Assembly: GCA_963703185.1 (NCBI GenBank)
Contig: OY969795.1
Location: forward strand, 375,968-439,967
Source of the DNA: an uncultured Parachlamydiaceae bacterium
GTDB taxonomy: Bacteria > Chlamydiota > Chlamydiia > Chlamydiales > Parachlamydiaceae
Length of the DNA: 64,000 bases
Reading direction: 5' to 3'
Both the position numbers and the translations under genes were made by a program. How positions within the stretch are numbered: the stretch's first letter is position 1; each line of letters begins with the position of its first letter. Positions 11,668-64,000 of the stretch are shown here, one piece after another. The notes under the pieces are model-generated. The model did not search any database and was not told the DNA's origin. It was given only the letters and a program-made list of their open reading frames with translations.

Positions 11668-11716
11668 TTGTGGTCTTATAAAAAAATAAAAGTTGCATTC
11701 TGAAGTAATTAAAATT

Positions 11717-11983
11717 TTATTGCACACAGATTTTTTTCCAATTATCAGAAAATTGAGCTGATTCGGGATTCCCATTCCACAGAAGAGTTTGCAGATACCT
11801 TGCATCAACGGCAGATGAATCGGTAGGCCACCATCGAAAAGTTCCCTTTGAAAGTCGTTTAGTGCAGAGCCAAAAGCCTTGACCATCGTATACCAATAGG
11901 CGGATAGTTGTTCTCCCTCGGTTACGGAATACAAATACCGTACCTTGAAATGGATCTTGATCGAGTATATTCCTGCAAACGGC
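11717..11983 (-). pseudogene. tnpB: IS66 TnpB C-terminal fragment, copy B
   Basis: Identical to 1537-1803. Hand-translated Orf2 signature DPFQGTVFVFRNRGRTTIRLLVYDGQGFWLCTKRL. Confidence 0.75.
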
Positions 11984-13983
11984 AGCTAGCGTAAGTTTAT
12001 TTCACGAAGCGAAATTTCTATCAACTTAAAATTTTTAAATTTCTTTATTTTAATGTCTTACGGCATTTTTGTTGTCTAAAAAAACGTATACTATGAAATA
12101 TAGTATTAATATGTTGATTTAAATGATAGCTTAGAATATATTTTTAATTTGTGTATACTAAATTTACGAGATAATAATGGCATCAATACAGTCAAGAATG
12201 TGTCGTGGGCATAAATATTGGTATATTGTCGAGTCAAGAAGGATTAATGGAAAACCTCGACCGATTGTAATTGAAAGTTTGGGTACGACGGCCAACTTAA
12301 TTGCCCGTCTCCAAGGTGAAAAATCGCAAAACGGATTCAAACCGTACTCACATGGTGCGGTTGCAACACTTCTTGTTCTCGCTAAAAAGCTTGATATCGT
12401 GTCTATTATCAATAAACACACTCTCGCGAATCGAAAATATTGGCCCAAGCAACCTATTCGCAATGATTTAACAGCAGGTATTACACTTCTTCTTGCAGCT
12501 GTCGGTAGAATTTGCATGCCAACCAGTAAACGAGGCTGGCACGATTGGGCTAAAACGACATCCTGCGATTATTTGCTAAGAATTTCTTCAGCAAAACTGG
12601 ATAGTCAACATTTTTGGGATTTAATGGATTGTATTCCGGTAGAAGCCATAGCTAAAATTGAGCTTGAAATTTTACAAAATGTTTTTCATCACTATCCTAT
12701 CAAAGGGGGAACGCTGTTATATGACACAACAAATTTCTATACATTTATCAATTCGACTAATGATCATTGCAGTATTCCTAAGAGAGGGAAAAACAAGCAA
12801 AAACGTGGAGACCTTCGTCAGGTAGGTTTAGCCCTTGCTGTTACAGAAGAGTATTACACCCCTCTTTTACATCACTCGTATCATGGAAATATTAACGACT
12901 GTAAAGTGTTTGGAGAAATAATTTCCTCGATCAAGATCAGAATGGAGTTGCTCAAAATAGATACACGCGAACATACCATTGTTTTTGATCGTGGTTGTAA
13001 TTCAAAAAAAAATCTCGAACAAATTAATGATCTTAACTTGCACTATATTGGAGCCCTTACTCCATCTCACCATAAAGACCTTTTAAAAAGAGCGGAAGGT
13101 AAGTTTATTGCTACTCAGGTTGGGGATAATGAACTTGAGATCTACCGTGAAAAACGAGATGTTTGGGGTGAAGAACGGACTGTTTTAGTTTTTGTCAGCC
13201 AAAGACTGAAGGATGGACAGTTTAGAGGTGTTTATCAAGCATTAGAGAAAAAAGAAAAACGTCTTAAAGAGATTCAAAAAGGTCTTTTAAGTCCAAGATC
13301 CAGAAAACGAACAAAGGATCAGTTAGAAAACCTAATGCAGAAACTTCTCAAGGGACAGTTCATGGATGGGTTAATAACTTATAACCTTGAGGAAAGAAGT
13401 CCTAGGCGCTGGAATATGACTTATCAAATAAGTGAAGACAAACTTGCTGATCTGGATGAGCGACTCGGATATCGCATTGTTATGACTAATCGTCATGACT
13501 GGGGCAGTGAAAAGATTATAAAGGCATTTTACGATCAATCAATTGTAGAAGGTGCTTTTAAAAATTTGAAAAACCCATATCACTTAGCGGTGACACCAGG
13601 ATTTCATTGGACGGATCAGAAATTAAGAATTCATTACATGATCTGTGTAATCGGATATCTTTTGGCTGCATTAGTTTGGTATGACGCTAAAAAAGCCGGT
13701 ATTAACACAACCTTGGATACTTTGCTTGATTCATTAAATGGCATTCATCTTGGAAGATTCGTTGACATGACAGGAAAACAGGGAAGGCCAAAAGTAACAT
13801 ATCGTTTAGAAGATCTATCAGAAGAACAAAAGGTTCTTGTCGACTTATTCAACCTATCAGAAATTCATCTCAAGCCACTCAAGATTGATGGCGTCAGTGT
13901 ATACAAATAAAAACAACTCTAAAGAACTAACTTCAAATGACTAGCGTAAGTTTATTTCGCTTCGCGAAATAAACTTACGCTAG
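11984..13983. mobile_element. IS1634/IS4-like insertion sequence IS#1, copy B
   Basis: Identical to 1804-3803. 30-bp terminal inverted repeats. Removing 11984-13983 joins the tnpB pieces in frame (GIDG|AVCRN). Confidence 0.8.
12177..13910 (+). CDS. IS1634/IS4-family DDE transposase (577 aa), copy B
   Basis: Translation identical to 1997-3730. Confidence 0.85.
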   Translation: MASIQSRMCRGHKYWYIVESRRINGKPRPIVIESLGTTANLIARLQGEKSQNGFKPYSHGAVATLLVLAKKLDIVSIINKHTLANRKYWPKQPIRNDLTAGITLLLAAVGRICMPTSKRGWHDWAKTTSCDYLLRISSAKLDSQHFWDLMDCIPVEAIAKIELEILQNVFHHYPIKGGTLLYDTTNFYTFINSTNDHCSIPKRGKNKQKRGDLRQVGLALAVTEEYYTPLLHHSYHGNINDCKVFGEIISSIKIRMELLKIDTREHTIVFDRGCNSKKNLEQINDLNLHYIGALTPSHHKDLLKRAEGKFIATQVGDNELEIYREKRDVWGEERTVLVFVSQRLKDGQFRGVYQALEKKEKRLKEIQKGLLSPRSRKRTKDQLENLMQKLLKGQFMDGLITYNLEERSPRRWNMTYQISEDKLADLDERLGYRIVMTNRHDWGSEKIIKAFYDQSIVEGAFKNLKNPYHLAVTPGFHWTDQKLRIHYMICVIGYLLAALVWYDAKKAGINTTLDTLLDSLNGIHLGRFVDMTGKQGRPKVTYRLEDLSEEQKVLVDLFNLSEIHLKPLKIDGVSVYK

Positions 13984-14058
13984 GCCGTCGATGCCTTTAC
14001 GGAAGTCGACAAATTGAACACAGATAAAAATACGGGTAGACGGAGATATCTGAAGCAT
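13984..14058 (-). pseudogene. tnpB: IS66 TnpB N-terminal 25 codons, copy B
   Basis: Identical to 3804-3878. Confidence 0.7.
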
Positions 14059-14060
14059 GA

Positions 14061-14417
14061 CTACCTCCTGAATAGTTGGCAGAGGAAGTTTAAGCAAGAG
14101 AAGGATCCTTGAATTTTAGCTTGCAGCCCATCGGCAGATCTGAGTTCAATCGTCACTGTATCAGAAGCTGATTGAATTGCCGGTATGACAATCTCACGAA
14201 ATTCGAGTGTCGGCTCATTAGATTGATGGATTTTACGCTTCAAATAGACGGGATTAATCTGAAGCTGATGACAAACCTCCTTAACGGAATAGATTTTTGT
14301 TTGCTGAATAATCGAGGCCCATAATTCCTGGGGAAATTTACGTTGAGTCCTCGGGTCTTGTCTTAATCGATCAAGGGCGGATCGAATTTCTTCAATTGGG
14401 ATGAATTTAGTTTCCAT
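14061..14417 (-). CDS. tnpA: IS66-family TnpA (Orf1), copy B
   Basis: Translation identical to 3881-4237. Confidence 0.7.
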   Translation of the reverse strand: METKFIPIEEIRSALDRLRQDPRTQRKFPQELWASIIQQTKIYSVKEVCHQLQINPVYLKRKIHQSNEPTLEFREIVIPAIQSASDTVTIELRSADGLQAKIQGSFSCLNFLCQLFRR

Positions 14418-14475
14418 ACCGAATAATCTCCTTTGAGTTAAAGGAGATAAAGATACTGAATTGGATTATTCGCCG

Positions 14476-15843
14476 TTAAGCACTCTCACCGCAAGGACAC
14501 AAAAGCCTGCCGTCAACCGTTGCAGAGCTATGCATACGTAGTCGCTTCATGTCCAGCTGATTTTTAAGGTCATCAAAGCATTTCTCCACTACGTCTTTAT
14601 CTCGGTATATCTGCATAGCTTCTATTGGGGCTTTAATGCTATTAGTGAGCAATGCCTGAAATCCTGAATAGCGATTGATATACTGACTAACAGCTTGAGT
14701 GTTGTATGAAACTTGTGTACCACGCTTAGGGGTTGTTTTTATCACAAAAAAATCGTCGTAGGATTCCTGGTGTTCTTCAACTAGTTTTCCAGACTCAAGC
14801 TCCTCCCTGTATTTCACCAGTTCTGCATTAAACCGATCAACAGCCACCGCCCTAGCGTAAGCGTTGTAGTAAAGGTAAAGGTAGCAGCGACGATTTTCCT
14901 TTCCCCATGGATACAGACGAGTGTGAACATAAAGAATTTCGTCATCAAGCTTTCGATAGCCCTCGGGCCCATGAATGACTTCATGAATATCATCGATCGC
15001 ATGTTGTACCCACTTGTTATTCAAAGGAACGGACAGAATAAACTTATCTCTTGAGATAAGTAGTTCATCAACATTCTTTTTACTATAAAATCCCTTATCC
15101 ATAACATAGTGGAATGATTTCATTTCCAAAGTTTTAAAAGTCTTCAGAAGGCCGTGCAGAGTGGTGACGTCGGTGATATTTCCTGGAAGGCGTTGAAAAT
15201 ACACAGGCAAGCGTCCCTTCTGACCGAAAAGTATGGCGAGATTCAACTGTGGTAACTTCTCATTATCACGGTTGTGTCCATATTTGATGAATTCGTTAAA
15301 TTCGGAGTAGGAGGAGATAGAAGTGATGTCATAGCAGAGATAATCATCTTCCAAAACCTTCTTCATCCACTTGTTGAAGAAGGTTTGCTTTCCATCGATG
15401 CTAATTGAGCGAAGGATTTCTGTTATGCACTGACTTGTCAAAGGTACGTCGAAAGGATGTGCATGACTTTTGCACCACGTCCCGCAGTGGCTCAAAGGAC
15501 CTCCCTGGGAAACAAGATAATAAGCCATTGTTAGAATCTGTCGATACTCCTTGGGAAAGCAGGCTTTTAACATACCTTCCAAGCCTAACTGGTCGGTAAT
15601 GGTGTCAAGAATAATAGAAGACCCCACTATCTCGGCAGATGCTGTGACAATCGGATCTCTAACAGCAGCCTGTTCAGGCGCAAGACGCTTGGCTGGAATG
15701 AAATCTCCGTTAACAGGATCAAGTTTGCCAATGCAAACCTGTTTGTTACGCGCTTGTTTTTTTTCCTTATCCCAGCATGAAACAGCCTCATAAACATATA
15801 TGATGCCAGTTTTCTTGTTCACCTGATGTACTCGATAGGTCAT
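14476..15843 (-). pseudogene. Truncated IS1634-like transposase (IS#2), copy B
   Basis: Translation identical to 4296-5663. Confidence 0.8.
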
Positions 15844-15972
15844 ACGATCTCCTTTTTACATGGTTATAATTATAACTATGTAAAAAGGAAAGAACTTTAG
15901 GATTTACATTTCAAAACGTTGATATTTAGTGATTTGTATTAGACCTAGTTATAATTCTCACGGGAAATGAGG
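14501..15972. mobile_element. Truncated IS1634-like element IS#2, copy B
   Basis: Identical to 4321-5792. Identity with copy A stops exactly at the IS terminal repeat (15972). Confidence 0.7.
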
Positions 15973-16111: not shown

Positions 16112-16378
16112 TGTCAACAACCACGGAAAACGACCCATTTGGCGGTCGCCTAAAATGGACCACTTGGCGGTCATCGAAAATGGACCACCTGGCGGTCACT
16201 CAAAATGACCCACCCGCGCGCCGCTAAAAACGCCCACCAAACGCTGAGTTTTTTTTGCTCAGCATTTGTCATTATTAAAATTTAAATTTTGTCAAATAAC
16301 CAGCCGCTGAAGATCTCTTCATTCGCTATAATTTTTCGACCCCATAAGTGGGTAAATTTAGCGAAAGGAAGATTAATC

Positions 16379-17995
16379 ATGACACAAGGAAGGAGAAAAT
16401 CCGTGGCTGAAAAAAGACAAATATTGATCGAACTAAAAAAAGGCAGTTCCATCAGGAAAGTAAGTTATGCGTTACGCGTTCATAGAGATATTGTGCGGTC
16501 TGTGGTCGACGTTGCCAATACCCATGGCTGGATGCACCCTGACTGCGCAATACCGACGGAAGAGGACATGCAATGCGTCATCGAGCAGAAGTATCAACCT
16601 GCACACCTGCTCGATGATTATAGGGATAATATTCGTGAGTGGCGTCAAGATGGATATTCAGGCGTAGTTATACAACGACTACTTCAGAACAATCACGACG
16701 TTTTCGTGCGCATCGGCGCCTTAAGAAGGTATTTGAACAAGCATTTTCCACAAACTATTGACCCCGTAATGGTTCGCCATACAATTCCAGGAGCTACTAT
16801 GGATGTAGATTTTGGATTTCTTGGCATGTTGTGGGATGAAAAGCTTGTAAAAATGCGAAAGGCATGGGTGTTTTCCGCTCGCCTTCGACACTCTCGAAAA
16901 ACATATCGCAAGATAGTGCCTAAACAAGATTCTCAAACATTTTTGATGTGTCATATCCATGCTTTCGAACACTTTAACGGGGTTCCTGAAGAAGTTGTTT
17001 TAGATAATCTCAAAGCAGGGGTTATCCAAAGCTCGATAGACAACGACATGCTGAACCGGTCATATTATGAATTGGCAGAGCATTATGGTTTTCGCATTTC
17101 TCCCTGCCGACCAAGAACCCCGGAACATAAAGGTGGAGTGGAAAACGACGTCAAATTCATTAAAAGGAATTTTTGGCCAGAAATTCGAGAAAAATTAAAA
17201 CAACAGCCTCGATTTTCATTTTTTCAGGCTCAAGAGGCTATTGAAAAATGGGATAATGAAATTGCCGGCGCGCGAATTTTAAGAGGTTTAAATCGTTCTC
17301 CGGAAGAAATTTTTACACATGAGGAGAAAAATTTACTCAAACCGCTTCCGAATAACAGATGGGAGTGTACTAAGTGGCTGCAATGCACTGTAGGAAGAGA
17401 TTGGAGGGTAGTCATAGACTCCAGTTATTATTCTGTTCCTTATGCTTATATTGGACAGACTGTTTATTGCCGCGTGACAAGCCAATTTGTTCACATCTAT
17501 CACGAGTGCGACAATATTGCAAAACACCCTGTCGCCAGCTCTAAAGGCGAATATCTTAAGAATGTAGATCACGCTCCGCCATTCAAAGATGCTGTGCTAA
17601 GCTGTACGAGAGAAGGACTGCTGGAAAATGCCAAAGAAATCGGGCCGAATACACATGCATTTTGTCAGCAGATGTTTTCAGATCCCCATACTGATAAGCT
17701 AAGGCCTGTCAGAAGCCTCTTAAGCCTTGTTATCAAATACGATAAGCAACGGTTGGAAAACGCCTGTGCCAGAGCGTTGTCGTATAAAAACCACTTATAC
17801 AGTAGCGTTAAAAGCATTTTAGAGAAAGGGCTTGATTTTGATGTCGAGCCCAATAGTGATGCTGACGGCTGGCAGATGGAACAGTACCGATCTGACGACA
17901 ACAAGTCTCCCCCAAATATAGAGAAGTTGAGTTTTAAGTTTGCAAGAGATCCGAAAGAATATGGTTCTAACAACAACATCAAATTAACAGCGTAA
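16379..17995 (+). CDS. istA: IS21-family transposase IstA
   Basis: The ORF 16289-17995 contains an HTH N-terminus and a DDE core (...DFGFLG..., HKGGVENDVKFIK). ATG at 16379 with gaaaggaag upstream is preferred. The earlier start lies in the terminal repeat. Confidence 0.9.
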   Translation: MTQGRRKSVAEKRQILIELKKGSSIRKVSYALRVHRDIVRSVVDVANTHGWMHPDCAIPTEEDMQCVIEQKYQPAHLLDDYRDNIREWRQDGYSGVVIQRLLQNNHDVFVRIGALRRYLNKHFPQTIDPVMVRHTIPGATMDVDFGFLGMLWDEKLVKMRKAWVFSARLRHSRKTYRKIVPKQDSQTFLMCHIHAFEHFNGVPEEVVLDNLKAGVIQSSIDNDMLNRSYYELAEHYGFRISPCRPRTPEHKGGVENDVKFIKRNFWPEIREKLKQQPRFSFFQAQEAIEKWDNEIAGARILRGLNRSPEEIFTHEEKNLLKPLPNNRWECTKWLQCTVGRDWRVVIDSSYYSVPYAYIGQTVYCRVTSQFVHIYHECDNIAKHPVASSKGEYLKNVDHAPPFKDAVLSCTREGLLENAKEIGPNTHAFCQQMFSDPHTDKLRPVRSLLSLVIKYDKQRLENACARALSYKNHLYSSVKSILEKGLDFDVEPNSDADGWQMEQYRSDDNKSPPNIEKLSFKFARDPKEYGSNNNIKLTA

Positions 17996-18010
17996 ATCCA
18001 TGGAGGTCAA

Positions 18011-18769
18011 ATGGATATATCATTAGAGAAAAAATTGGAACGGCTGCGTCTTACAGGAATGAAATGCACCTGTCAAGACCGGATTAAATCGGCTCAAGCG
18101 GAGGGGTGGGCTTACTCAGCCCTCCTCGACATGTTATTAACCGACGAATTGGATCGTCGAAACCAAACGCAAATGGTTCGTCGGCTCGCAAAAAGCGGTT
18201 TAGACATGAACAGAACCATGGACAGCTATGATTTCAAGTTCAATCCAAAACTACAAGTATCATCTTTTAGAGAATTAGCGTGTTGCAAATTTATAGAAAA
18301 TGGAGAGAATATCTTTCTCATTGGACCTAGCGGCGTAGGAAAAAGTCATCTAGCCAATGCTCTTGGCCATGAAGCCTGCCGTAGAGGTTTTGAGGTGCTT
18401 TGCTATAGAACGCACAAGCTTTTTGACTGGATTCATAGCGGGCGCGGCGATGGAACTTACAAAAAGAAGATGGAACAAATCATCAAGATTCCTCTTTTGA
18501 TTCTTGATGACTTCGGCTTACAATCTATGCAGCCGGTTCAGCAAGAAGACCTCTACGAGGTAATTTGCGAGCGATACGAAAAAAGAGCCATGATCATCAC
18601 GAGCAATCGAGATTTATCGGAGTGGGCATCAGTGTTTTCCAATCCGCTAATTGGCAGTGCAGCGATGGATCGATTGGTTCATAAAGGCACTGAATTGATC
18701 ATTGATGGAGCAAGCTATCGGGCAGCTCAATTTAAGAAAAAGACAGTAGCAAAGGGCGGTAAAGTTTAA
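18011..18769 (+). CDS. istB: IS21-family helper ATPase IstB
   Basis: 252 aa. Walker A GPSGVGKSH and Walker B LLILDDFG. Immediately downstream of istA. Confidence 0.9.
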   Translation: MDISLEKKLERLRLTGMKCTCQDRIKSAQAEGWAYSALLDMLLTDELDRRNQTQMVRRLAKSGLDMNRTMDSYDFKFNPKLQVSSFRELACCKFIENGENIFLIGPSGVGKSHLANALGHEACRRGFEVLCYRTHKLFDWIHSGRGDGTYKKKMEQIIKIPLLILDDFGLQSMQPVQQEDLYEVICERYEKRAMIITSNRDLSEWASVFSNPLIGSAAMDRLVHKGTELIIDGASYRAAQFKKKTVAKGGKV

Positions 18770-25658: not shown

Positions 25659-27248
25659 TTACATTTTTTTATCTTCTATCTTTAAAGGCTTTGAAAGATG
25701 TGCTTGAATAAGAAAAGAGTGAGCGCCCGTCTTGGGATTCGTAAATAAAAATCCATGATCTTCCATCAAATCTTTAAGATTTATTCCCCATTGACATTTG
25801 GTATCGAAGGAGTCAAAGGTCGAAGTTCCCGTCATAAGGAGATGGTCATCGGCATTTTTATTGATTAAGGCAAGTTCATAATTAATTTGAATTTTTTCAT
25901 TATCCTGCAATTTTCCTTGAGGGTATGCATAAGCAAATATCCCTAACTGATGTCCTTTTTCTCGTTCTACACTTACTTTCATCTCATAGGCACCGCTTGT
26001 AAACTTCGGTGATTCGATTTTCAGATCTTCAAATTTCATGGTATCAGCAATATCGCAAAACCAATAGAAAAGAATTTTTTCAGGATCTGAAACTGAGGTT
26101 GAAACCTTAAAATCTTTGTCGCAATTCAACTCTATCCATGGAAGAATGAGTTGTCTAGCAGCACGTATTTCAACTTTAGTCTCAGTTTTATCCTGCAATG
26201 CCAGAACAGCAGATATAAAAATCTCCCTTTCAAAGATATTAAATAACTCGTTACCGCCAACATATACATCCTTTAATCTTGCAATGTGCTTCACTGTTGA
26301 ATGTTCTAAATGAATACATTTTTTTATTTGTTTGACGGTGCGTTCATTCAAATCAGACTGATTGCATAACCATTTAATAGCCAAGCTACACACTTCATTC
26401 TCAAAAAGATTTAATTTTTTTGAGCTTAAAAATTTGATCACATGTTCTTCTGAAAGTTTAATGAAATTGGCCCTGGGAGCCTTAAATACTTCACGCGCAT
26501 TGCGTAAAATATAGTTTTTGATTTCATGCTCTAGATCGCAATAGCTGAGATCTTTTTCTTGACTAATTTGATTAATTTTTTCAAAAAAATCCAATGCATT
26601 TTCATAATTGAGCAACTCCAGGCAACCTGAAACACAAAACTCTTTAAGTTCTTTAATATTAAGATCTTCGGCCAACCGATAAATTATAAATAGATTACTT
26701 TCCTTAATTTCTATCTTCGAAAGATATAGATAACTCAAAATATCATTAACAATATTGGGAGGATAAACATCCAGCATCATTTGCAATTTATCCTGGAGTT
26801 GCTGTAAAGCATCTCTCTCTTGACCCGAATTTTTCAATTCAGCCAAATCATTCCAGAACTTCTTTGAGCGCAGAGTGAGTACCATGCTATGCAACTTAAC
26901 TTCTTTACCCCCAACGGTAACGCTCATATCGCATGTTTTCGGTTGATTCTTTAATTTCTTTAGCCGATGGGAAACACAATCGCGTGTCGCGATCATTTTA
27001 ATACGCAATGGTGCCATCTCTTGAGAGTTCTTGATTGATTGGGACCTTTCAATTTCTTCATCAAGAGTTCTAACTCTTCCTCCTAAACGCGGCATCCAAG
27101 CCCAAATTCCTTTATCATATTTAGATTTTTCAACTTGTGTTGATGGATATTGCACAGAAATTTTTGGATAATCTTCTTTAAATCTAAATTTTATATTAGA
27201 TTCTTTTCTATGCGTTCTTTCGGCTGTGTTTCTTTCAACAGGTTCCAT
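25659..27248 (-). CDS. BTB/POZ-domain protein with BACK-like middle region and MATH-like C-terminus
   Basis: 529 aa. CDMSVTVGGKEVKLHSMVLTLRSKKFW is a BTB core. The C-terminal 130 aa have a MATH/TRAF-like pattern (inference). Confidence 0.75.
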   Translation of the reverse strand: MEPVERNTAERTHRKESNIKFRFKEDYPKISVQYPSTQVEKSKYDKGIWAWMPRLGGRVRTLDEEIERSQSIKNSQEMAPLRIKMIATRDCVSHRLKKLKNQPKTCDMSVTVGGKEVKLHSMVLTLRSKKFWNDLAELKNSGQERDALQQLQDKLQMMLDVYPPNIVNDILSYLYLSKIEIKESNLFIIYRLAEDLNIKELKEFCVSGCLELLNYENALDFFEKINQISQEKDLSYCDLEHEIKNYILRNAREVFKAPRANFIKLSEEHVIKFLSSKKLNLFENEVCSLAIKWLCNQSDLNERTVKQIKKCIHLEHSTVKHIARLKDVYVGGNELFNIFEREIFISAVLALQDKTETKVEIRAARQLILPWIELNCDKDFKVSTSVSDPEKILFYWFCDIADTMKFEDLKIESPKFTSGAYEMKVSVEREKGHQLGIFAYAYPQGKLQDNEKIQINYELALINKNADDHLLMTGTSTFDSFDTKCQWGINLKDLMEDHGFLFTNPKTGAHSFLIQAHLSKPLKIEDKKM

Positions 27249-37371: not shown

Positions 37372-38400
37372 ATGTTGAGCTTTAAAAGATTGCTATTGCT
37401 AGGGAGTGCCCTGGCAGCTCTTTGCTCAGGAACATCGACTCCCCTTGATGCTTCCTGCCACAGTGTCTGCATCGACCCTTGGAACAGTCTCAGCCTTTCG
37501 GGCGGCTGGCGAAGAGATTCCATAGACAATAACGTCCATGGAACAATAGCAGGAACACTGCCAGGCAGTCGAACAAATATCTTTAAAGAAAAATTAAGGA
37601 TTAAAAAGTTAGATGTTTGGCAAGTAGGCACCCAGCTTCATTTATCACTGCCTAACTGCAGCAATTGCTGCTGCTGTTGCGGTGAAGATTGGTGGTGGCT
37701 CGATCAATTTTATATCCGCGGTTCAGCTTACAGAGGCTGGATCAGCAATGGAAGATACAGTTCCACGACCAATTTTTCCTTATTACCTCCCTCCACTGTT
37801 ACTCAAAGTGCTTCCATACACAAAGGGCGCACTGTTGATGGAACCGTAGGCTTTGGCTTTCTCTATCCTATCTGCGACGATATAGCTGTTGGCCCTATCG
37901 GCGGCTGGTCTTATGACCAAGTCAGAGTTTCTACAAAACGTGCCGAATTGGATGGCATCGATGATTCCGTTTTTAGCGGTTCAACCTTTACTTCTACTTG
38001 GAGAGGCCCTTGGGCTGGATTTGATTTCGTTTACCATTGGTGTTTTTGCGACTCCCTAGCTTTGCGCTTTGACGGAGGTTACGAATATCATTGGGCCACA
38101 TGGAAAAGTTCATTTAGACCAAATAATGACATTCTTCCTTGTCAGTTATTTGCAACCCGCGGCCATTCTCATGATGCGTGGGGGCAAGCGGGCTATTTGA
38201 ATGCCTGGTGGAATATTTGCAAATGCTGGGATGTCGGCATCGGTGTGAAATATCAATTTTGGAAAGCGAAAAAGGGTTCTGTACGTCCTACAACAAATAG
38301 TTTTGCAGGCATGGGCTGCGATCCAACAGAAAGGAATAAACTCAAGAATGCCGGCTGGCGCTCGCTCGGTGTTACATTGGATCTAGCTTATACGTTCTAG
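37372..38400 (+). CDS. Cysteine-rich putative beta-barrel outer-membrane protein
   Basis: Signal peptide MLSFKRLLLLGSALAALCSG. Alternating aromatic/Gly-rich strands. C-terminal ...LDLAYTF. Contains CSNCCCCCGEDWWW. Confidence 0.6.
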   Translation: MLSFKRLLLLGSALAALCSGTSTPLDASCHSVCIDPWNSLSLSGGWRRDSIDNNVHGTIAGTLPGSRTNIFKEKLRIKKLDVWQVGTQLHLSLPNCSNCCCCCGEDWWWLDQFYIRGSAYRGWISNGRYSSTTNFSLLPPSTVTQSASIHKGRTVDGTVGFGFLYPICDDIAVGPIGGWSYDQVRVSTKRAELDGIDDSVFSGSTFTSTWRGPWAGFDFVYHWCFCDSLALRFDGGYEYHWATWKSSFRPNNDILPCQLFATRGHSHDAWGQAGYLNAWWNICKCWDVGIGVKYQFWKAKKGSVRPTTNSFAGMGCDPTERNKLKNAGWRSLGVTLDLAYTF

Positions 38401-45154: not shown

Positions 45155-45243
45155 ATAAAACCAAATTAATTATATTAGACTTTTTTCAAAACTAGCGTTT
45201 TGAAAAAATTTAATGTATATATGATGCCTTTGTGGAGGTATCA

Positions 45244-46115
45244 ATGAAATACGATCAAATAGAAGAATTCTCAGATGAACAATTTCGCAGATTAACAGGG
45301 GTTAAAAAAAGTACGTTTAAAAAAATGGTCGAGATTTTAAGGGAAGCGGATCAGAAGAAAAAAACTCGAGGTGGACGTAAGAGTAGGTTATCGATTGAAG
45401 ATCGGCTGCTTATGGCTCTAGAATACATTAGAGAATATAGGACTTATTTTCATATAGCAACAAGCTATGGAGTAAGTGAAAGCGTGGCATACAAAATTGT
45501 ACGCTGGGTAGAGAACACTTTGATTAAAGACCCCGCATTTGCTTTGCCAGGGCGTAAAGCTCTTTTAAAAAGTGATATGGAATATGAAGTTCTGCTTATA
45601 GATGCATCTGAAACGCCAATAGAACGCCCTAAAAAAAAGTCAGACAAAAGCAGAAAATAAAAAATCGGAACAATAAGCAGAAACATTTTTATTCAGGTAA
45701 GAAGAAAAGACATACAATAAAGAGCCAGATTGTTGTAGATAAGAGAACAAAAAAAGTAATTTGTACAAATTTTAGTAATGGGAAGAAGCACGACTTTAAA
45801 TTGTTTAAAGAAAGCAGAGTACGGTGGACAAAAGATCGTTGTGGAATAACGGACAGTGGATACACAGGAATAAAGAAATTACAGAGCAATTCAAGGCTTC
45901 CAAAAAAATCCAGTAAGAAGAAGCCTCTAACAGTAGAAGAGAAAAAACAAAATAGAGAAATATCTTCTGAAAGGGTTGTGAACGAGAATGTGATAGGGAG
46001 TTTAAAAATATTTAAAATTATAAGTGACAGATATAGGAATCGAAGAAAGGGATTTGGTTTGCGATTCAATTTGATCGCAGGAATTCACAATTTAGAGTTG
46101 ACTAGGGAGTTTTGA
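45244..46115 (+). CDS. DDE transposase made from two frames by a -1 frameshift (about 290 aa)
   Basis: orfA (HTH; ...LIDASETPIERPKKK) ends at 45660. The -1 frame is open from about 45639 and encodes ...YSGKKKRHTIKSQIVVD...DSGYTGI...NENVIGSLK..F.L, a DDE core. The start is taken at MKYDQIEEF. Confidence 0.75.
45633..45639 (+). promoter_or_regulatory. A_AAA_AAG -1 ribosomal frameshift heptamer
   Basis: The heptamer is in the correct zero-frame phase (cct aaa aaa aag tca). The -1 frame continues open into the DDE domain. Confidence 0.6.
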
Positions 46116-46269
46116 AAGAAGTCTATTTTAGTAAGGCTATTATAAACAATTTACGATTATTTTTCAATATTTTTTTATAAATTATTTATTTTATCTCTAC
46201 AAAAAAAGGATATATCTTTTATTCTCAAAGCTGTTATATTGTTTGAATATTTTGCGGAGGTTTTTTCCT

Positions 46270-54355: not shown

Positions 54356-57300
54356 ATGAAACGCTCAATTTTTCTTCTGCTTTGCTTCTGCATACACCTC
54401 TATGCTGATGATGATTATGTGGCTGAGCCCAATTCTTTGGGCGATCCTTCCTTAGCTTTGACAACATTGGAGGGCGCTCCTGTCAATATTGTGCATCAAT
54501 GCGTCAATGTGATCACCGGAGACTATACCGATTTCAGCACCGATATTATTGTACCCGGGCATGAGCCGCTGACTCTTCAACGTTTTTTTTGCTCATCCGA
54601 TTTTAATGTCGACTCCCCTTTTCAGGGCTTGGAAATTCAATCATGATATCGCGGTTTTTGAAAATAAGAGAAATAAAACAATTCTTAAAGATGCCTTTGG
54701 AGCACAGATCGAATACTCCTATCGGGAAAAAGAAAAAAAACATCTCCATTATAGAGAAGTGGATTTTCAAGTTCTGGAAAAAGGTGTAACAAACTGCAAT
54801 AGGCGGATGGGAGGACAAACTCACTTAAAAAACAAACTTCTTTACGAGGGGAAGAGAGGGGTTTTGAGCGTTGTCAATGGCGCTGGGGTCACTTATAATT
54901 TCAAGAGGCTGCACGACAATCATGAGTCCAAAATTACTAGCCTTCAGCTTCCCAATGGAAATATGCGGGAGTATGCGTACGATCACAACCACAATCTGCT
55001 TCAAGTAGTCAATACGACAAGTAAGGCTGAGAAAACAGGAAGTCTGGATTTCAAATTTAATAAAGAGGACGATACGTTGCTAATCAGTTCTTCTAATTCT
55101 GAACAAGCAAAATACTCTTTCAAAACCACGAAATATTATGTGATTAACTACGAATGGTACATGCAGCATAATGAAAAAAAATATAAATCTTATCCTGTTT
55201 ATTTAATAACAGAAGCACTCTCCTCAAATAATCCAAAGGAAACTTACACCTATGAAACTCTTCCCGAAAAAAAGCCGGACCATCCGCCGCGTCTGATAAG
55301 AAAAGATCGTCCCGATAATAGATTTCTTGAAATCGATTATTATCAGCGGAATAGCCGTTGCTACTGGCCCAGAGGAGAAGATAGAATACACAATACACGC
55401 ATGGGCCGTGTCATGGCTCTTAAAGCGCCGGCAAGCACCGATGCTACCTCTATACCAATCTATTATTTCTATTATAAGCTAAATAAAAGAATCGAATCTT
55501 CTAGATTCTATTTATCCGGTTACACAGATGTGGCAGATGCTTACAACCATCTGAAATCGTATCATTTTGGCGAAGACGAAAGAATCCACCAGATAAAACA
55601 CTATTGTGGAACAGGCCCTCATACACTCTATGCCACCGAAAATTTCTATTGGAGCGCGAATAGATCTAGAGAGGATGTGGGTAATTTAAATGCCAAAACT
55701 TTAGTCAAAGAAAATGGCGAAGTCTTGTTTTGCCATAAATATGCATATGACGATGCGGGAAATGTCACCGGCGAGGCCATTTGGGGAAACTTGACTGGAA
55801 GCAATCCTTCCCCCCTTCAATTTAAAGAAGATGGAATCCCCCTTGAAAATGGATGCGATAACCTTTTTGTAGGCCGTCAATATTCACAGGATAAGTTTAA
55901 TCTTCTGACCTACGAAAATTGCATGTCTAAGCCTCATGACATTAAATATGAGTACGTGAACGGAAAAAATTTGCTGTCTGCAAAATACATCATTAGCAAT
56001 GGCATCCGTTCGCGGGAGTTTTTTGAATATGACGACAACGGCGCTCTGATTACGCAGATCCAAGATGATGGCCTTGACTACGGCATCGGCAATTTTAGCG
56101 GCGTGACCGAACGGCACATCACACGTATAAAAAATACAACCACTTTCCCTTTTGGCCTTCCCCATATCATCGACGAAAGTTATGCCAATCTCCAAAACGG
56201 TCAAGAAGTCCTCTTAAAACGAACTGTCAACTACTATAACTCTAAAGGTCTATTAGACTCGCAGGAAGTGTGGAGCAGCGATTTAAAAGAACATTACACG
56301 CTGCACTGGTCTTATAATGATAAGGGGCAGGCGACGCAAGAAACGGATCCAATGGGATCGACCATCCAACGCACTTACGATGTTAACGGCAACCTCATCA
56401 AAGAGTTAAAACCTAGCGAAAATCATGCTCGTATCTACGAATATGACTTTATGAATCGATTGATCCGCGAAGAAGATCAGGAAATCATTAATGATAGCAT
56501 TCATAAACGCTTATCTAAAACTTATCGCTACGATCTTACCGGCAATCGGATTGCTAGCACTGATCCCTATGGCAAAGAGACGCACTATAAATATGACGAC
56601 TTTGGACGGGTCATTTCGATCACTTTGCCAGATGTGCAAGATGAAAATGGGCAAACGGTTCAACCGATCCTCCGCAAAAATTATGATGAAATGGGAAATG
56701 TCATAAAGCTCATCGATGCTAAAGGTTTTTCTGCTACTGCTAAATACACTTTGCATGGCAAGCCCTATCTCATTTGCCATCCAGATGGCACACGGGAACA
56801 GTTTGAATACACTTTAAAAGGACAGCTCAAAAAATCTATCGCGCGAAATGGCACCTACACTGTTTACGATTATGATTATTTAGCGCGCCCAATTAAAAAA
56901 GAGGTGTTTTCTCCGCAAGGTGAACTCCTGATAACGCAGTCGCGCAAATACAGCGCTGTCCATCTTTTGGAAGAGATAAATCCTTCAGGACAGGTGACCC
57001 GTTATAATTATGATAGCGCAGGAAGATTGATCCATAAACTTCAAGGCGATCGCCGTACCGATTATCTATACGACAATTGGGGCAGACCCTTCGAAGAAAG
57101 GGAATTTTATAGCGAGTCGGAATATGTCGCCACCATTAGACATTACGATTTATGCAATCGGGTCACTGAAGAGTTGATCCAAGATATGACCGGCACCGCT
57201 TTGTCGTGGGTCGGTTATAGATATGATGCAGCAGGCAATAAAACAATGACATTTACACGCAATTGTGCAGGAGAACACTTGCAAATGGCTGTTTACGATT

Positions 57301-59894: not shown

Positions 59895-60421
59895 AACTAA
59901 TATTATTTTTTCTTTTAATACTTTTGAGTTCCTGTTTTGAGAATCAGCAACATAAATCTCAGCAACATGCATGCAAAATGAGAAATGAGGTTATAAGTAT
60001 CTTAACAAAACGACATAAAATGGAATCAACGGAACTCAGTTGTGGTGGCATGTTTGATTGTGTCCAAGATCTTTCTCTTACATTTGAAATCGAAGGACCA
60101 AAAACTAAAGAAGAATTAAGAAGGATCATGGTCGATTCTTTAGAAACTTTTCTCAAGGCTATTAATAATGATAAACAATTACGGCCCTATCTTATTATAT
60201 ATCCTTTTAGCATAAAACAAATTTATTTAACAATTTTTGTAAGAGATAAAGACCAATATTATATTTGGCATCCAGAAATTAGAAGAGTATCAATGCACCT
60301 GAATGGAATTACATATATAACTTATGATCAAGAGTACAACCGAACTGAGTTTGTTGAGACATATGAGGAAGCAAAAAAAATAATTAAATCAGAAAATCAA
60401 CATCCCAACAACATTAAATGA
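59885..60421 (+). CDS. Lipoprotein, candidate immunity protein 1
   Basis: Lipobox LLILLSS|C. The start (59873 or 59885) overlaps the rhs stop codon at 59892-59894. Confidence 0.6.
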   Translation: MQIKLILFFLLILLSSCFENQQHKSQQHACKMRNEVISILTKRHKMESTELSCGGMFDCVQDLSLTFEIEGPKTKEELRRIMVDSLETFLKAINNDKQLRPYLIIYPFSIKQIYLTIFVRDKDQYYIWHPEIRRVSMHLNGITYITYDQEYNRTEFVETYEEAKKIIKSENQHPNNIK

Positions 60422-60422
60422 C

Positions 60423-60989
60423 ATGCATACAATTATTTTTGTTTTTCTAAGTTTGTTTATTATTAAATCTTGTGGTTATAATTACATGCCTATAAGGCAT
60501 AACGCACATCCTGCATACCATGAATCTCAAAGTGCTTGGGAGAAATTTGCAATTACAATGAGTAAAAGATATCAATTAAATATTTTAAATTATGCGCCTT
60601 GTTATTTTAAGCCAGATCCGAAGTTCTGGGGAGTTTTGTTCTCAAATTCCGATTTTATAACAATCGATCAAGCAAGATTTGTCATGGTTGACCTAGTTAA
60701 AAATTATTTAAATTTAATCTACCAAGATCCATCTTTTAAAGAGAGGCTTTTGGACTATCCTTCGCAAAAAGAAATCAATATTAAGACTATTGAACAATAT
60801 TTGGGCATAAAGGTTGCAACATGGGATAAAGATGTAAATCGGCCGATGCGTCCTTATATCGCTGACATGATTTATCAAAATGGTTCTATTTCCTATTTTT
60901 ATGCTAATCCGGATACTCAAGCTTTGGAACTTGCCCTTACAGAAACTTTTGGTGAGGCTATTCAAATCCTCAAAACACAAAATCAATAA
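60423..60989 (+). CDS. Lipoprotein, candidate immunity protein 2 (distant paralog of the preceding gene)
   Basis: Lipobox LFIIKS|C. Starts 1 nt after the previous stop. Co-linear motifs with the previous gene (..MVD...L..I..D, G.I.Y...D, ET.eEA..I). Confidence 0.6.
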   Translation: MHTIIFVFLSLFIIKSCGYNYMPIRHNAHPAYHESQSAWEKFAITMSKRYQLNILNYAPCYFKPDPKFWGVLFSNSDFITIDQARFVMVDLVKNYLNLIYQDPSFKERLLDYPSQKEINIKTIEQYLGIKVATWDKDVNRPMRPYIADMIYQNGSISYFYANPDTQALELALTETFGEAIQILKTQNQ

Positions 60990-61053
60990 TAAGTTATCCA
61001 CATTCGTGGTGAATATAATAGATGGATAAATTAATGAAAATAAAACTATCAAT

Positions 61054-62001
61054 AGACTTCTTTCAAAACTCCCTAGTCAACTCTAAATTGTGAATTCCTG
61101 CGATCAAATTGAATCGCAAACCAAATCTCTTTCTTCGATTCCTATATCTGTCACTTATAATTTTAAATCTTTTTAAACTCCCTATCACATTCTCGTTCAC
61201 AACCCTTTCAGAAGATATTTCTCTATTTTGTTTTTTCTCTTCTACTGTTAGAGGCTTCTTCTTACTGGATTTTTTTGGAAGCCTTGAATTGCTCTGTAAT
61301 TTCTTTATTCCTGTGTATCCACTGTCCGTTATTCCACAACGATCTTTTGTCCACCGTACTCTGCTTTCTTTAAACAATTTAAAGTCGTGCTTCTTCCCAT
61401 TACTAAAATTTGTACAAATTACTTTTTTTGTTCTCTTATCTACAACAATCTGGCTCTTTATTGTATGTCTTTTCTTCTTACCTGAATAAAAATGTTTCTG
61501 CTTATTGTTCCGATTTTTTATTTTCTGCTTTTGTCTGACTTTTTTTTAGGGCGTTCTATTGGCGTTTCAGATGCATCTATAAGCAGAACTTCATATTCCA
61601 TATCACTTTTTAAAAGAGCTTTACGCCCTGGCAAAGCAAATGCGGGGTCTTTAATCAAAGTGTTCTCTACCCAGCGTACAATTTTGTATGCCACGCTTTC
61701 ACTTACTCCATAGCTTGTTGCTATATGAAAATAAGTCCTATATTCTCTAATGTATTCTAGAGCCATAAGCAGCCGATCTTCAATCGATAACCTACTCTTA
61801 CGTCCACCTCGAGTTTTTTTCTTCTGATCCGCTTCCCTTAAAATCTCGACCATTTTTTTAAACGTACTTTTTTTAACCCCTGTTAATCTGCGAAATTGTT
61901 CATCTGAGAATTCTTCTATTTGATCGTATTTCATTGATACCTCCACAAAGGCATCATATATACATTAAATTTTTTCAAAACGCTAGTTTTGAAAGAAGTC
62001 T
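61054..62001. mobile_element. IS5-family-like insertion sequence, 948 bp, copy 2 (inverted)
   Basis: Same ends as copy 1. 3-bp direct repeat AAT at 61051-61053 and 62002-62004. Confidence 0.85.
61063..61934 (-). CDS. DDE transposase with -1 frameshift, copy 2
   Basis: orfA is identical to copy 1. orfB differs at two residues (KIFK to KRFK, RKGFG to RKRFG). The heptamer is at 61539-61545 on the minus strand. Confidence 0.75.
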
Positions 62002-62202
62002 AATATTTGACGTAGCTCAATCAGCATAGGCGCATTGCTGGCTATGCAATGCCGCCGTAAAATTAGCTTTTATAATAAATCGATTGTCTTATTGCTTAAA
62101 TTGCTTGCTTTGACTTGATTTTATTTTATTTTCTAATAAATGCTACAATCAAATTATAAAAACAAGAGATTCTTGTTTATAAAGGCAACTTACCTCAGCT
62201 TT

Positions 62203-64000
62203 ATGAGCAGTTGCCAATATTTTTATGATTTGCAAGGTAATAAATCAAAAGTTGTGGAAAAAGTGGTCGCTCACAATTCACCCGACCGAGAAATTATCAC
62301 CCGTTGGACCTACGACTGCATGAAACGTGTCACACTTTGCACAGATGCTTGCGGAACACCTGAACAAATGTCTACACACTATCGCTATCTTCCAAATGGC
62401 ACCCTTGCCGGCATCGCCAAAGGCAACAGCGTTGAACTTTTGCATGAATATGATGCCCTTGGCAGACTTGTTTCTTTTCGAGGATCAGATCATTCATTCC
62501 ACTATATCTATACCTATGATCTCAACAATAATCCGATTCAAGTTAAGGATTTGATCAATCAAACCGAAATCAATCGATCGTTTGATGATAACAATCGTCT
62601 GCGCGAAGAACTTTTACCTAATAAACTACTTTCAAAGTACACCTACGACCGAATCGGCCGAGTGGTTAAACTACAGCTGCCGGATAGTAGTTTTATTGAG
62701 TACGATTATCAAGGGCTTCTTTTACAGCATATTCATCGCAAAGACAAAAGCGGCGCGATCAAATATACGCATACCTATGATCAATACGATCAAAGTCACA
62801 ATTTGTTAGCCATGACCTTGCCTGGAAATGCCGGAAAAGTCGCTTTTGATTATGACTGCCTGAACCAACCCACATCGATTCACGCGCCGCAATGGAATGA
62901 AATCGCGCATGATTATGATGCTGTAGGCAATGTCCTTCAAAAAACCTCCACTGATTCTTTAGGCGCTTACACCAGTCAGTTTGCCTATGATGGGATGTAT
63001 CAGCTCATTTCGGAAAGAGGAGTCTTTTCACACGATTACACAAATGACTCCGTTTATAATCACATTCAAAAAGATGGGCATTCACAGCAGTTTAATGCGC
63101 TTAATCAGTTGCTCGCAGATGCGACTTCAACCTACGAGTATGACGCAAATGGAAACTTGAAAAGTCTGATTAGGAACTCTGAAAAACAAACATTTGATTA
63201 CGATGCCCTTGGAAGACTCACACGGGTCACTACACAGGATAAACAATATTGCTATCAATATGATGCTTTTAACCGCCGCATGAGTAAAACATGCCTCGCA
63301 TGGAATGGAGAGGCGTGGGCAAAGGTGAATCAAGAGTTATACCTCTATAACGGCGGAAATGAAATCGGGTCGACAAATGAAAAGACCGAACTGCAGGAAC
63401 TGCGCGTTTTGGGAATGATCAAACAGATCGAACAAGGATCTAACGCCGCGATTGAACTGCAAGAAGAAGTGTTGGTGCCGATTAATGATCTTCGCGGAAA
63501 TACCGCCTGTCTTGTTGACCTTGAAGGCAAAGTCGTTGAATTTTATCGGTATAGTTCTTATGGAGATGAGGAAATCTACGATGCCTCAGGGCAGGTTGTT
63601 AAACACAGCCGCAACCCTTGGCGCTTTGCCGGAAAACGAAAAGACGCCGAAACCGGCTTCATCTTTTTTGGAGAACGCTATTATTCCACGCATACCTATA
63701 GCTGGATCACTCCCGATCCCATTCATCATGAAGGAGGTCCAAATCTCTATGCCTATGTAATGCATAATCCCCTATCTGTCTGGGATTCATATGGAGAAAC
63801 TGGTGAATATATCTTTCCCTATCTTCCCCCTTCATTATATGAGCTGGCATGGCCCTGCAGAGCTTTTTGCCTGACTGGAGATAGCGGCTATTCCATGCCG
63901 TACCTCCCTGATTTTGAACATTTCGCAGACGAAAAATCTCATTGTTTTGATCTCGGACGATATGAACTGCCAGACTTCAGAATTACTTTTGCCAATGGAA
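62203..64000 (+). CDS. Orphan rhs 3' fragment (YD repeats, core end and start of toxin domain), runs off window end
   Basis: 62218-64000 matches 57498-59280 with about ten substitutions. The frame is open from an in-frame ATG at 62140 or 62203 to the window end. It is absent from the ORF track because it has no stop in the window. Confidence 0.7.
   Translation, partial: MSSCQYFYDLQGNKSKVVEKVVAHNSPDREIITRWTYDCMKRVTLCTDACGTPEQMSTHYRYLPNGTLAGIAKGNSVELLHEYDALGRLVSFRGSDHSFHYIYTYDLNNNPIQVKDLINQTEINRSFDDNNRLREELLPNKLLSKYTYDRIGRVVKLQLPDSSFIEYDYQGLLLQHIHRKDKSGAIKYTHTYDQYDQSHNLLAMTLPGNAGKVAFDYDCLNQPTSIHAPQWNEIAHDYDAVGNVLQKTSTDSLGAYTSQFAYDGMYQLISERGVFSHDYTNDSVYNHIQKDGHSQQFNALNQLLADATSTYEYDANGNLKSLIRNSEKQTFDYDALGRLTRVTTQDKQYCYQYDAFNRRMSKTCLAWNGEAWAKVNQELYLYNGGNEIGSTNEKTELQELRVLGMIKQIEQGSNAAIELQEEVLVPINDLRGNTACLVDLEGKVVEFYRYSSYGDEEIYDASGQVVKHSRNPWRFAGKRKDAETGFIFFGERYYSTHTYSWITPDPIHHEGGPNLYAYVMHNPLSVWDSYGETGEYIFPYLPPSLYELAWPCRAFCLTGDSGYSMPYLPDFEHFADEKSHCFDLGRYELPDFRITFANG

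Follow-up and report, generated by a model that had tools for sequence, protein, structure and literature searches.

The 64,000-nt stretch of DNA examined here (the window; all coordinates are window positions) contains an rhs polymorphic-toxin cassette. This cassette is real but frameshifted, and it lies in a Parachlamydiaceae-like genome. It consists of a large rhs gene encoding a signal peptide, a YD-repeat shell, a linker and a C-terminal domain of the alpha/beta-hydrolase type (the tip), followed by two small genes for putative exported proteins. An insertion sequence (IS) and a second, 5'-truncated rhs module are found further downstream (Table 1). The original prediction, made from the sequence alone, had proposed a Sec-dependent Rhs toxin with two lipoprotein immunity candidates; it overlooked the paralogy of the small genes, the hydrolase nature of the tip, and both the IS and the orphan rhs module. 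The locus is probably best read as a Sec-exported Rhs toxin cassette with a hydrolase payload, an exported immunity partner and a module-switching orphan.

Table 1. Features of the rhs cassette and its flanks in window coordinates
Feature	Position	Strand	Details
rhs 5' segment, frame 1, up to the frameshift	54356..54629	+	includes the start of DUF6531
Sec-type signal peptide of the rhs gene	54356..54406	+	MKRSIFLLLCFCIHLYA; by inspection
Frameshift site, one extra T in GGC[T]TGG	54626..54631	+	repaired alignment, restored DUF6531
Rhs/YD-repeat shell	54630..59078	+	core domain nt 58857-59075; core-end motif NLYAYVMHNPLSVWDSYGE 59022-59078
Linker ('pre-toxin') segment	59079..59216	+	kept between main and orphan copies; low model confidence
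Alpha/beta-hydrolase toxin domain (putative), DUF687-related	59217..59891	+	candidate triad Ser146 59514-59516, Asp197 59667-59669, His245 59811-59813
Immunity candidate 1, 182 aa	59873..60421 (alternative start 59885)	+	putative lipoprotein, good lipobox LSSC (LLILLSSC) after a hydrophobic stretch
Immunity candidate 2, 188 aa	60423..60989	+	paralogue of candidate 1, weak lipobox IKSC (FIIKSC)
Orphan 5'-truncated rhs module	62203..64000 (runs off window end)	+	ORF start 62203; DNA homology from 62218
IS copy, HTH_Tnp_4/DDE_Tnp_4 transposase	61051..62006	-	split in two ORFs (61063-61377, 61518-61946); Pfam matches
Upstream outer-membrane protein gene	53260/53323-53910		OMP_b-brl match, E = 1.2e-11

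Reading frame, shell and core of the rhs gene

The rhs gene is present as two overlapping open reading frames (ORFs) on the + strand, one of 96 aa (54356-54646) and one of 1762 aa (54606-59894), and the frames are offset by +1. Because the frame of the second ORF is open only from 54573, the two can be joined only between 54573 and 54646. Deletion of one T in CAGGGC[T]TGGAAA (around 54629) yields a continuous protein, the insertion following codon 91. The N-terminal 190 residues of the repaired protein align across the junction with 12 relatives ('PFQGWKFNHD' against 'G.GGWRIFPQ', that is, 'QGW' against 'GGW'). The DUF6531 match, which in the 96-aa ORF covers profile positions 4-37 with 24.8 bits, extends after the repair to positions 4-74 of 74 with 35.2 bits. 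The locus thus holds one rhs gene with a 1-nt insertion, and this is either a sequencing or assembly error or a very recent inactivation. As assembled, the gene is interrupted and may therefore be inactive; long-standing decay is argued against by the 1762 codons that remain open after the frameshift.

A run of eight T residues at 54583-54590 was also considered as the site of the frameshift. It was ruled out since the first-frame 'CSS' motif downstream of it is common to a relative from a metagenome locus (L001), and since the repair at about 54629 restores DUF6531.

Past the junction, the giant YD/Rhs shell of the original prediction was recovered by all of the profile searches it had suggested. 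The large ORF matches RHS_repeat (PF05593, E = 5.8e-53), the YD-repeat model TIGR01643 (E = 2.6e-34) and, at residues 1418-1490, the Rhs core model TIGR03696 (63.9 bits against a cut-off of 32.5). The enterobacterial RHS element core equivalog NF041261 was not reached (117 bits against a cut-off of 2000). The core-end motif is found where it had been placed, at residues 1473-1491, in the variant form WDSYGE, and is followed by 271 residues. Two aspartates in the core, Asp1464 (nt 58995) and Asp1487 (nt 59064), are 23 residues apart, as are the two autoproteolytic residues in Tc and Rhs cocoons. Apart from DUF6531 and RHS_repeat, Pfam gave no domain in the protein: PAAR, VgrG-related, SpvB/TcdB and two-partner-secretion (haemagglutinin-type) domains are all lacking from it, in agreement with the original prediction.

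By inspection, the N-terminus of the rhs product (MKRSIFLLLCFCIHLYA/DDD) looks like a Sec signal peptide. Equivalent hydrophobic N-termini are shared by 12 of the 13 full-length relatives from metagenome loci and by the majority of the 46 relatives that reach at least 1500 aa. The plain Sec signal peptide had been called unusual, but in itself it is not: the survey of Zhang et al. 2012 (PMC3482391) records Rhs toxins with signal peptides from many phyla, among them Chlamydiae.

The C-terminal hydrolase domain

The 271 residues beyond the core-end motif begin with the linker, which was modelled with low confidence (predicted local distance difference test, pLDDT, below 50 at residues 1-9 and 18-42 of the C-terminal region); up to shell residue 1559 the identity to the orphan copy is 98%. 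A word-indexed protein search with the tip returned no matches, and a PDB sequence search returned a chance-level match only. The family emerged only from an exhaustive HMMER search of 1.84 billion representatives, with 1014 homologues, of which 319 have E <= 1e-10. Among the best 150 of the 1014, 85 carry a similar Rhs shell sequence, and 46 are at least 1500 aa long with the domain at the very C-terminus. Many homologues form the C-terminal end of Rhs proteins of about 1700-1900 aa, most of the long ones beginning like signal peptides (by inspection). The source names attached to the homologues include Chlamydiales, 'Verrucomicrobia' metagenome-assembled genomes (MAGs) and Babeliaceae. In a species-representative genome collection the Rhs protein has one relative only, in a Parachlamydiaceae MAG (35% identity, signal peptide present).

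The homologues connect the tip to DUF687 (PF05095). This family is matched by 25 of 32 domain-only homologues (best E = 6e-16) and by several full-length ones; the matches span positions of about 25-208 in a profile of 537, and some are above the gathering cut-off (for example, 60.1 bits). DUF687, a Chlamydia family, occurs in proteins that are predicted to reside in the inclusion membrane, among them CT326 and CPn0066 (PMC3048545). A 2024 survey describes it as an alpha/beta hydrolase that lacks catalytic residues and has six C-terminal transmembrane helices (PMC11878206). Judged by these intermediate sequences, the window tip is a relative of DUF687 and not a scored member. It ends 26 residues after His245, and the C-terminal transmembrane bundle of DUF687 is absent.

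Conservation within the tip family points to a catalytic site. Ser146, Asp197, Asp104 and Trp127 are invariant in two independent alignments, while His245 is invariant in one of these (A2) and conserved in at least 90% of sequences in the other (A1). The window tip keeps all of the conserved residues (TSS146GG, RD197VVP, FDH245AITSPTY). In the AlphaFold2 model of the tip (pLDDT 83, predicted template-modelling score 0.80), Ser146 is located between a strand (139-146) and a helix (147-158), that is, in a nucleophile elbow. Almost all of the PDB matches listed by Foldseek for this model are alpha/beta hydrolases (E = 1e-4 to 3e-3), and these include a polyketide thioesterase, carboxylesterases, YjfP, cutinases, dienelactone hydrolases and a venom phospholipase A1. 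From the alignments and the model we conclude that the tip is probably a small, cap-less serine hydrolase with a Ser146-Asp197-His245 candidate triad. To call it a lipase is a reasonable guess; an esterase or a thioesterase would fit equally well.

Partner genes and the orphan module

Two small genes follow the rhs gene immediately and the first overlaps the toxin stop codon, as the original prediction had it: the ATG of candidate 1 (59873 or 59885) lies upstream of the rhs stop TAA at 59892-59894. Candidate 2 starts 1 nt past the stop of candidate 1, and the three genes, which overlap or abut, have the structure of an operon. The two small proteins are paralogues (23% identity, E = 1e-7). A word-indexed search with them found homologues on one contig of 2,668,820 bp only, evidently from the window's own genome, which encodes four proteins of the candidate 1 type (100, 84, 74 and 68% identical) and four of the candidate 2 type. 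This apparent orphan status of the family is an artefact of search sensitivity, since the metagenome scan described below shows that the family is widely spread. No relative of the partner family was found in Pfam, PADLOC or the PDB (profile search). The AlphaFold2 model of candidate 1, built from 8 sequences only (pLDDT 76.8), is a small alpha+beta domain for which Foldseek gave no match.

Two of the candidate 2 paralogues in the same genome, P0223 and P0225, are identical over their last 77 residues and only about 70% identical in their N-terminal halves (by inspection). This mosaic suggests recombination between immunity-gene copies.

The metagenome scan was seeded with the closer set (A4) of hydrolase-domain homologues and yielded 46 loci. 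In about 40 of the 46, the hydrolase stop has an ORF start within -6 to +42 nt of it, usually at -3; the encoded protein is 171-194 aa long and hydrophobic at its N-terminus. Homology to candidate 1 (phmmer, E = 3e-31 to 2e-9) was detected for 40 of 44 downstream ORFs, from 35 loci, and 11 of them also match candidate 2. Tandem partner copies like those of the window are present in four loci (L011, L023, L028 and L029), in arrays of two or three. The pair of hydrolase and partner also occurs without a Rhs shell (L017, L043, L046 and L048); in the last of these, a 2.28-Mb genome, a 177-aa downstream lipoprotein matches the partner-family profile with an hhalign probability of 99.6%. A DUF687-like protein at a further locus (L049) has no partner-family gene beside it.

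According to the original prediction, the immunity hypothesis would fail if the lipoproteins were conserved elsewhere with no link to rhs genes. The opposite was found. Candidate 1 homologues were found only directly downstream of genes with the same C-terminal domain, in about 35 of the 46 metagenome loci and in the one 2.28-Mb genome. The partner is also the fastest-diverging part of the system, with a mean pairwise identity of 41%, compared with 49% for the shell and 56% for the tip. Sequence and gene order together suggest that the partner is a new family of exported immunity-like proteins, which marks the hydrolase domain wherever that domain occurs.

Three stand-alone hydrolase homologues (P0194, P0154 and P0159; L048 4001-5784) have no signal peptide and carry an N-terminal motif of the form WNGR[DE]V or WQGRDV. 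They may represent a different delivery module for the same toxin. A partner-family lipoprotein gene still lies downstream of P0194. When a stand-alone homologue without a signal peptide keeps an exported partner, protection against an incoming toxin fits better than protection during export, and this is a hint in favour of a bacterial target on the periplasmic side. In three other loci an ORF of about 330 aa follows the partner gene on the same strand (L013 4681-5670, L015 7598-8605, L016 1642-2634). A lipobox-like Cys is present in two of these three proteins, which have no counterpart in the window.

Downstream of the cassette, the DNA at 62218-64000 is 99.4% identical to positions 57498-59280 of the main rhs gene. 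The orphan ORF that contains it is 100% identical to the first 599 aa of an 801-aa database protein (P0001), which makes it possible to compare the whole module with the main gene. P0001 is 96-100% identical to the main protein over shell residues 1010 to about 1559 and 76-84% identical in the hydrolase domain, where the triad is kept. The variable C-terminal domain of roughly 270 aa that had been predicted is therefore confirmed both in its length (271 aa) and in its variability (76-84% identity between main and orphan copies, against about 100% in the shell). The orphan copy lacks the first 960 or so codons and has no signal peptide. The main gene and the orphan module form a classic rhs layout with the breakpoint at the start of the catalytic domain, and the partner paralogues encoded elsewhere in this genome, with their graded identities, parallel the tip divergence of the orphan module. 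No orphan rhs modules were detected within 6 kb downstream in the metagenome loci. The IS that separates the cassette from the orphan module is 956 bp long and 99.7% identical to an inverted copy at 45172-46127. The split of its transposase ORF could be due to a frameshift or to decay.

The frameshift and the truncated copy could also mean that the locus is a decaying relic. The main gene would then be a true pseudogene, the second copy a truncated remnant beside an IS, and nothing functional would be made. The +1 frameshift after codon 91 is at a site without a long homopolymer, several IS families or copies are found in the window with one right after the cassette, and the orphan copy has lost its first 960 or so codons together with the signal peptide. 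Against this, 1762 codons stay open past the frameshift in a genome of 40% G+C, with the family motifs and the triad intact, and the immunity genes are intact as well. Orphan rhs fragments are moreover a normal, functional part of rhs loci, as in the rhs orphans of Salmonella. A relic is rather doubtful.

Genomic context, interpretation and known systems

The chlamydia-like lineage that had been inferred from the sequence is supported by the surroundings of the cassette. The best lineage marker in the window is a gene of the Pom (Protochlamydia outer-membrane protein) family at 37372-38400 (E = 8e-34). Eukaryote-like genes encode an F-box protein (6153-7502, with tandem repeats of a 60-bp period at 6874-7176) and a BTB/BACK protein (25659-27248), both of which are typical of amoeba-symbiont chlamydiae. 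The sole relative in the genome collection, as noted above, is from a Parachlamydiaceae MAG. The window averages 40.1% G+C. Along the cassette the value drops in steps, with 41.8% for the Rhs shell, 36.9% for the tip and 29-32% for the small genes. No type VI secretion system (T6SS) families were found among 30 large or neighbouring ORFs scanned elsewhere in the window, which agrees with the earlier statement that no T6SS genes are visible there.

Directly upstream of the cassette, the small outer-membrane protein (OMP) gene was found as described, with its own terminator, a strong one with a 17-bp stem at 53934-53971. A functional link between this gene and the cassette had been offered as speculation. 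It received no support, as no OMP homologue is present upstream of the 13 full-length rhs relatives, for which about 1.5 kb or less of upstream sequence is available. Just upstream of the OMP gene lies a Lys/Glu-rich ORF of 405 aa (51905-53122) that belongs to no Pfam family and has no homologue 5' of the related rhs loci.

A perfect (100%) direct duplication of 5,792 bp is present at 1-5792 and 10181-15972; it touches the window start and may be longer. Each copy contains a 577-aa ORF without a Pfam family (1997-3730 and 12177-13910) and a DDE_Tnp_1 transposase (4296-5663 and 14476-15843). Further IS-type genes within 20 kb (8560-10119, 10009-11934 and 16289-18769) encode DDE_Tnp_1 and IS66-family transposases, and a gene of the rve/Mu-transposase type forms a pair with one for an IstB-like ATPase. 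The density of IS elements is high.

Taken as a Sec-exported toxin with an exported immunity partner, the cassette would work as follows. A protein of about 1850 aa would cross the inner membrane via Sec, using a cleavable signal peptide. The YD-repeat shell, recognized by its profile matches, would enclose the predicted alpha/beta-hydrolase domain of about 225 aa, and release would occur by the aspartyl autoproteolysis typical of Rhs cores, for which both Asp residues are present at the right distance. For exit from the periplasm, the type II secretion system (T2SS) is the obvious candidate. The payload, to judge from its fold and triad, would most likely hydrolyse an ester or thioester bond in envelope lipids or lipidated molecules. 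The candidate 1 lipoprotein, linked to the hydrolase across so many loci, would bind and block the enzyme on the periplasmic side, and its paralogue, candidate 2, would serve as a second immunity copy. Module switching would then consist of replacing the main tip and its immunity genes with the orphan tip by homologous recombination, the substrate being at least 1.78 kb of near-identical shell DNA in an orphan that carries a diverged hydrolase domain.

Several observations weigh against this interpretation. The rhs gene does not have an uninterrupted frame in the assembly, and the sequence reveals neither how the protein would be delivered past Sec nor how it would enter a target. The window's own tip has no Pfam match, even at E <= 10. 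Its nucleophile motif, TSSGG (CHSQG in the family), is not a canonical GxSxG, and its template-modelling scores in Foldseek are only 0.3-0.55, which weakens any assignment to a substrate class. Compared with the lipobox consensus [LVI][ASTVI][GAS]C, candidate 2 has a weak site, with K at position -2, and in only a minority of the partner family is the hydrophobic N-terminus followed by a lipobox-like Cys (by inspection). Finally, the correlation between tip and partner divergence ('mirror-tree') is weak, with rho = 0.51 compared with 0.36 for shell and partner in 12 loci.

The target of the toxin could also be the host. The Rhs shell would in this case carry the hydrolase to membranes of the amoeba or of the inclusion, where it might serve lipid acquisition or egress, and the lipoproteins would only guard the envelope of the producer. 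The organism does look like an obligate intracellular member of Parachlamydiaceae (Pom porin, F-box and BTB genes in the window), and the related DUF687 is a mark of proteins that pathogenic Chlamydia are predicted to place in the inclusion membrane (PMC3048545). For several toxin domains of amoeba symbionts, Zhang et al. propose an action on the host (PMC3482391), and the passage of a toxin through the producer's periplasm could by itself explain an exported protector. However, the same authors note that host-directed versions are usually without immunity genes (PMC3482391), and at the loci studied here a partner is almost always present. Within one genome, hydrolase and partner have diversified on a shell that remains identical, a pattern expected from inter-bacterial competition. 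The partner kept by the stand-alone homologue without a signal peptide also fits protection from an incoming toxin better. Host targeting is unlikely.

It is very improbable that the small exported proteins are dedicated helpers of the hydrolase (a Lif-like steric foldase, or an export or activation factor) in place of immunity proteins. The comparison is suggested by the foldases of family I.1/I.2 lipases, which are membrane-anchored periplasmic proteins encoded just downstream of the lipase, and the partner, too, is an exported or anchored protein, whose gene is closely coupled to that of the hydrolase. Its rapid divergence relative to tip and shell speaks against such a role. Tandem arrays of two or three copies, and diversification together with the tip in one genome, are typical of immunity genes and not of foldases. 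The Lif fold is all-helical, whereas the partner is predicted to be a small alpha+beta domain with no PDB match, and one would not expect a toxin enclosed by a Rhs shell to depend on a foldase in the periplasm.

A structural surface or outer-membrane protein (an adhesin, or teneurin-like) whose C-terminal enzyme has a housekeeping role in the envelope is barely credible: an in silico survey predicted chlamydial RHS family proteins to be in the outer membrane (PMC2811131) and a signal peptide is present, but the Rhs core with both Asp residues, the variable tip, the AT-rich module of tip and partner and the orphan copy are hallmarks of toxin cassettes, and a housekeeping enzyme needs no cognate, co-diversifying partner that persists without the shell.

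The preferred reading of a Sec-exported toxin with a cognate immunity partner would propose a function, that of a serine-hydrolase toxin with named catalytic residues, for the 'Rhs-like hypothetical proteins' of Parachlamydiales and for the Chlamydia-specific DUF687. Rhs-like proteins form one of the largest orthogroups of Parachlamydiales (PMC6171736), and the validated target sites of Euo in Waddlia include an rhs gene (PMC4989314). Chlamydial Rhs proteins have thus been noted before, and they have not been studied. If the toxin is active, obligate intracellular symbionts would engage in toxin-mediated competition or in attack on host membranes with no contact-dependent injection machine, which would be relevant to symbiont-mediated protection of amoebae.

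A broader scenario can be put forward only as speculation, and it is decidedly unlikely to hold as a whole: environmental chlamydiae without a T6SS would use Sec-exported Rhs shells carrying a DUF687-type serine hydrolase as weapons inside amoebae, and the 'Inc' proteins of pathogenic Chlamydia, with their catalytically dead DUF687, would have arisen from this toxin domain by domestication. The targets may be the envelope lipids of competing strains or of co-infecting bacteria, or the inclusion membrane. The stand-alone homologues with the WNGR[DE]V motif, at least one of which has a lipoprotein partner, would point to a second, Sec-independent delivery route.

The closest known counterparts are the signal-peptide ('T2SS'-class) Rhs toxins, which Zhang et al. 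2012 (PMC3482391) reported from many phyla including Chlamydiae in a survey that also lists alpha/beta-hydrolase toxin tips, and WapA of Gram-positive bacteria. The cassette shares with them the order of signal peptide, RHS repeats, core, variable tip and, immediately downstream, a gene that is here a candidate for immunity, as well as an orphan module. It differs in that its toxin and immunity families have no Pfam models and in its core-end motif, DSYGE instead of DPxGL. WapA is anchored to a Gram-positive cell wall, whereas the host here is a diderm intracellular symbiont. The Tox-ABhydrolase-2 and -3 domains of the same survey (PMC3482391), compared here by description only, are also alpha/beta-hydrolase tips of classical polymorphic toxins. 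Their listed immunity types are cytoplasmic (SUKH, Imm66, Imm69), in contrast to the exported lipoproteins here, and Tox-ABhydrolase-2 was reported in Parachlamydia without an immunity protein (PMC3482391).

The cassette resembles Tc toxins in that an RHS-repeat shell surrounds a toxic C-terminal domain. Release from the TcB-TcC cocoon involves two aspartates about 23 residues apart. Unlike in Tc toxins, the protein has no SpvB/TcdB N-terminal domain, and no TcA-like translocator gene was found in the scanned neighbours. In its mode of action the predicted system is more reminiscent of the T6SS lipase effectors Tle1-4, which were reportedly described by Russell et al. in 2013 together with their periplasmic immunity proteins Tli. 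Both combine a serine hydrolase of the alpha/beta fold and a Ser-Asp-His triad with exported or lipoprotein immunity, often in tandem; exported immunity in both implies action on the periplasmic side of the envelope. In contrast to T6SS Tle and Rhs effectors, the protein contains no PAAR or VgrG domain and the 30 scanned ORFs of the window include no T6SS component. No Tle structure is among the top 50 Foldseek matches, so that the resemblance is one of working mode and not of family.

With DUF687 the tip shares a homologous hydrolase-like domain, seen through the matches of the tip homologues. Only the N-terminal third of the 537-position model is matched, and the tip family lacks the transmembrane bundle. 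While members of DUF687 are reported to be catalytically dead (PMC11878206), the tip family keeps Ser, Asp and His. The grammar of the system has been known since 2012 and this is not a new kind of system. The putative toxin and immunity pair itself appears to be undescribed. What appears to be new is the link between the toxin tip and DUF687, the partner family, and the breadth of the architecture of signal peptide, Rhs shell, hydrolase and partner in environmental sequence.

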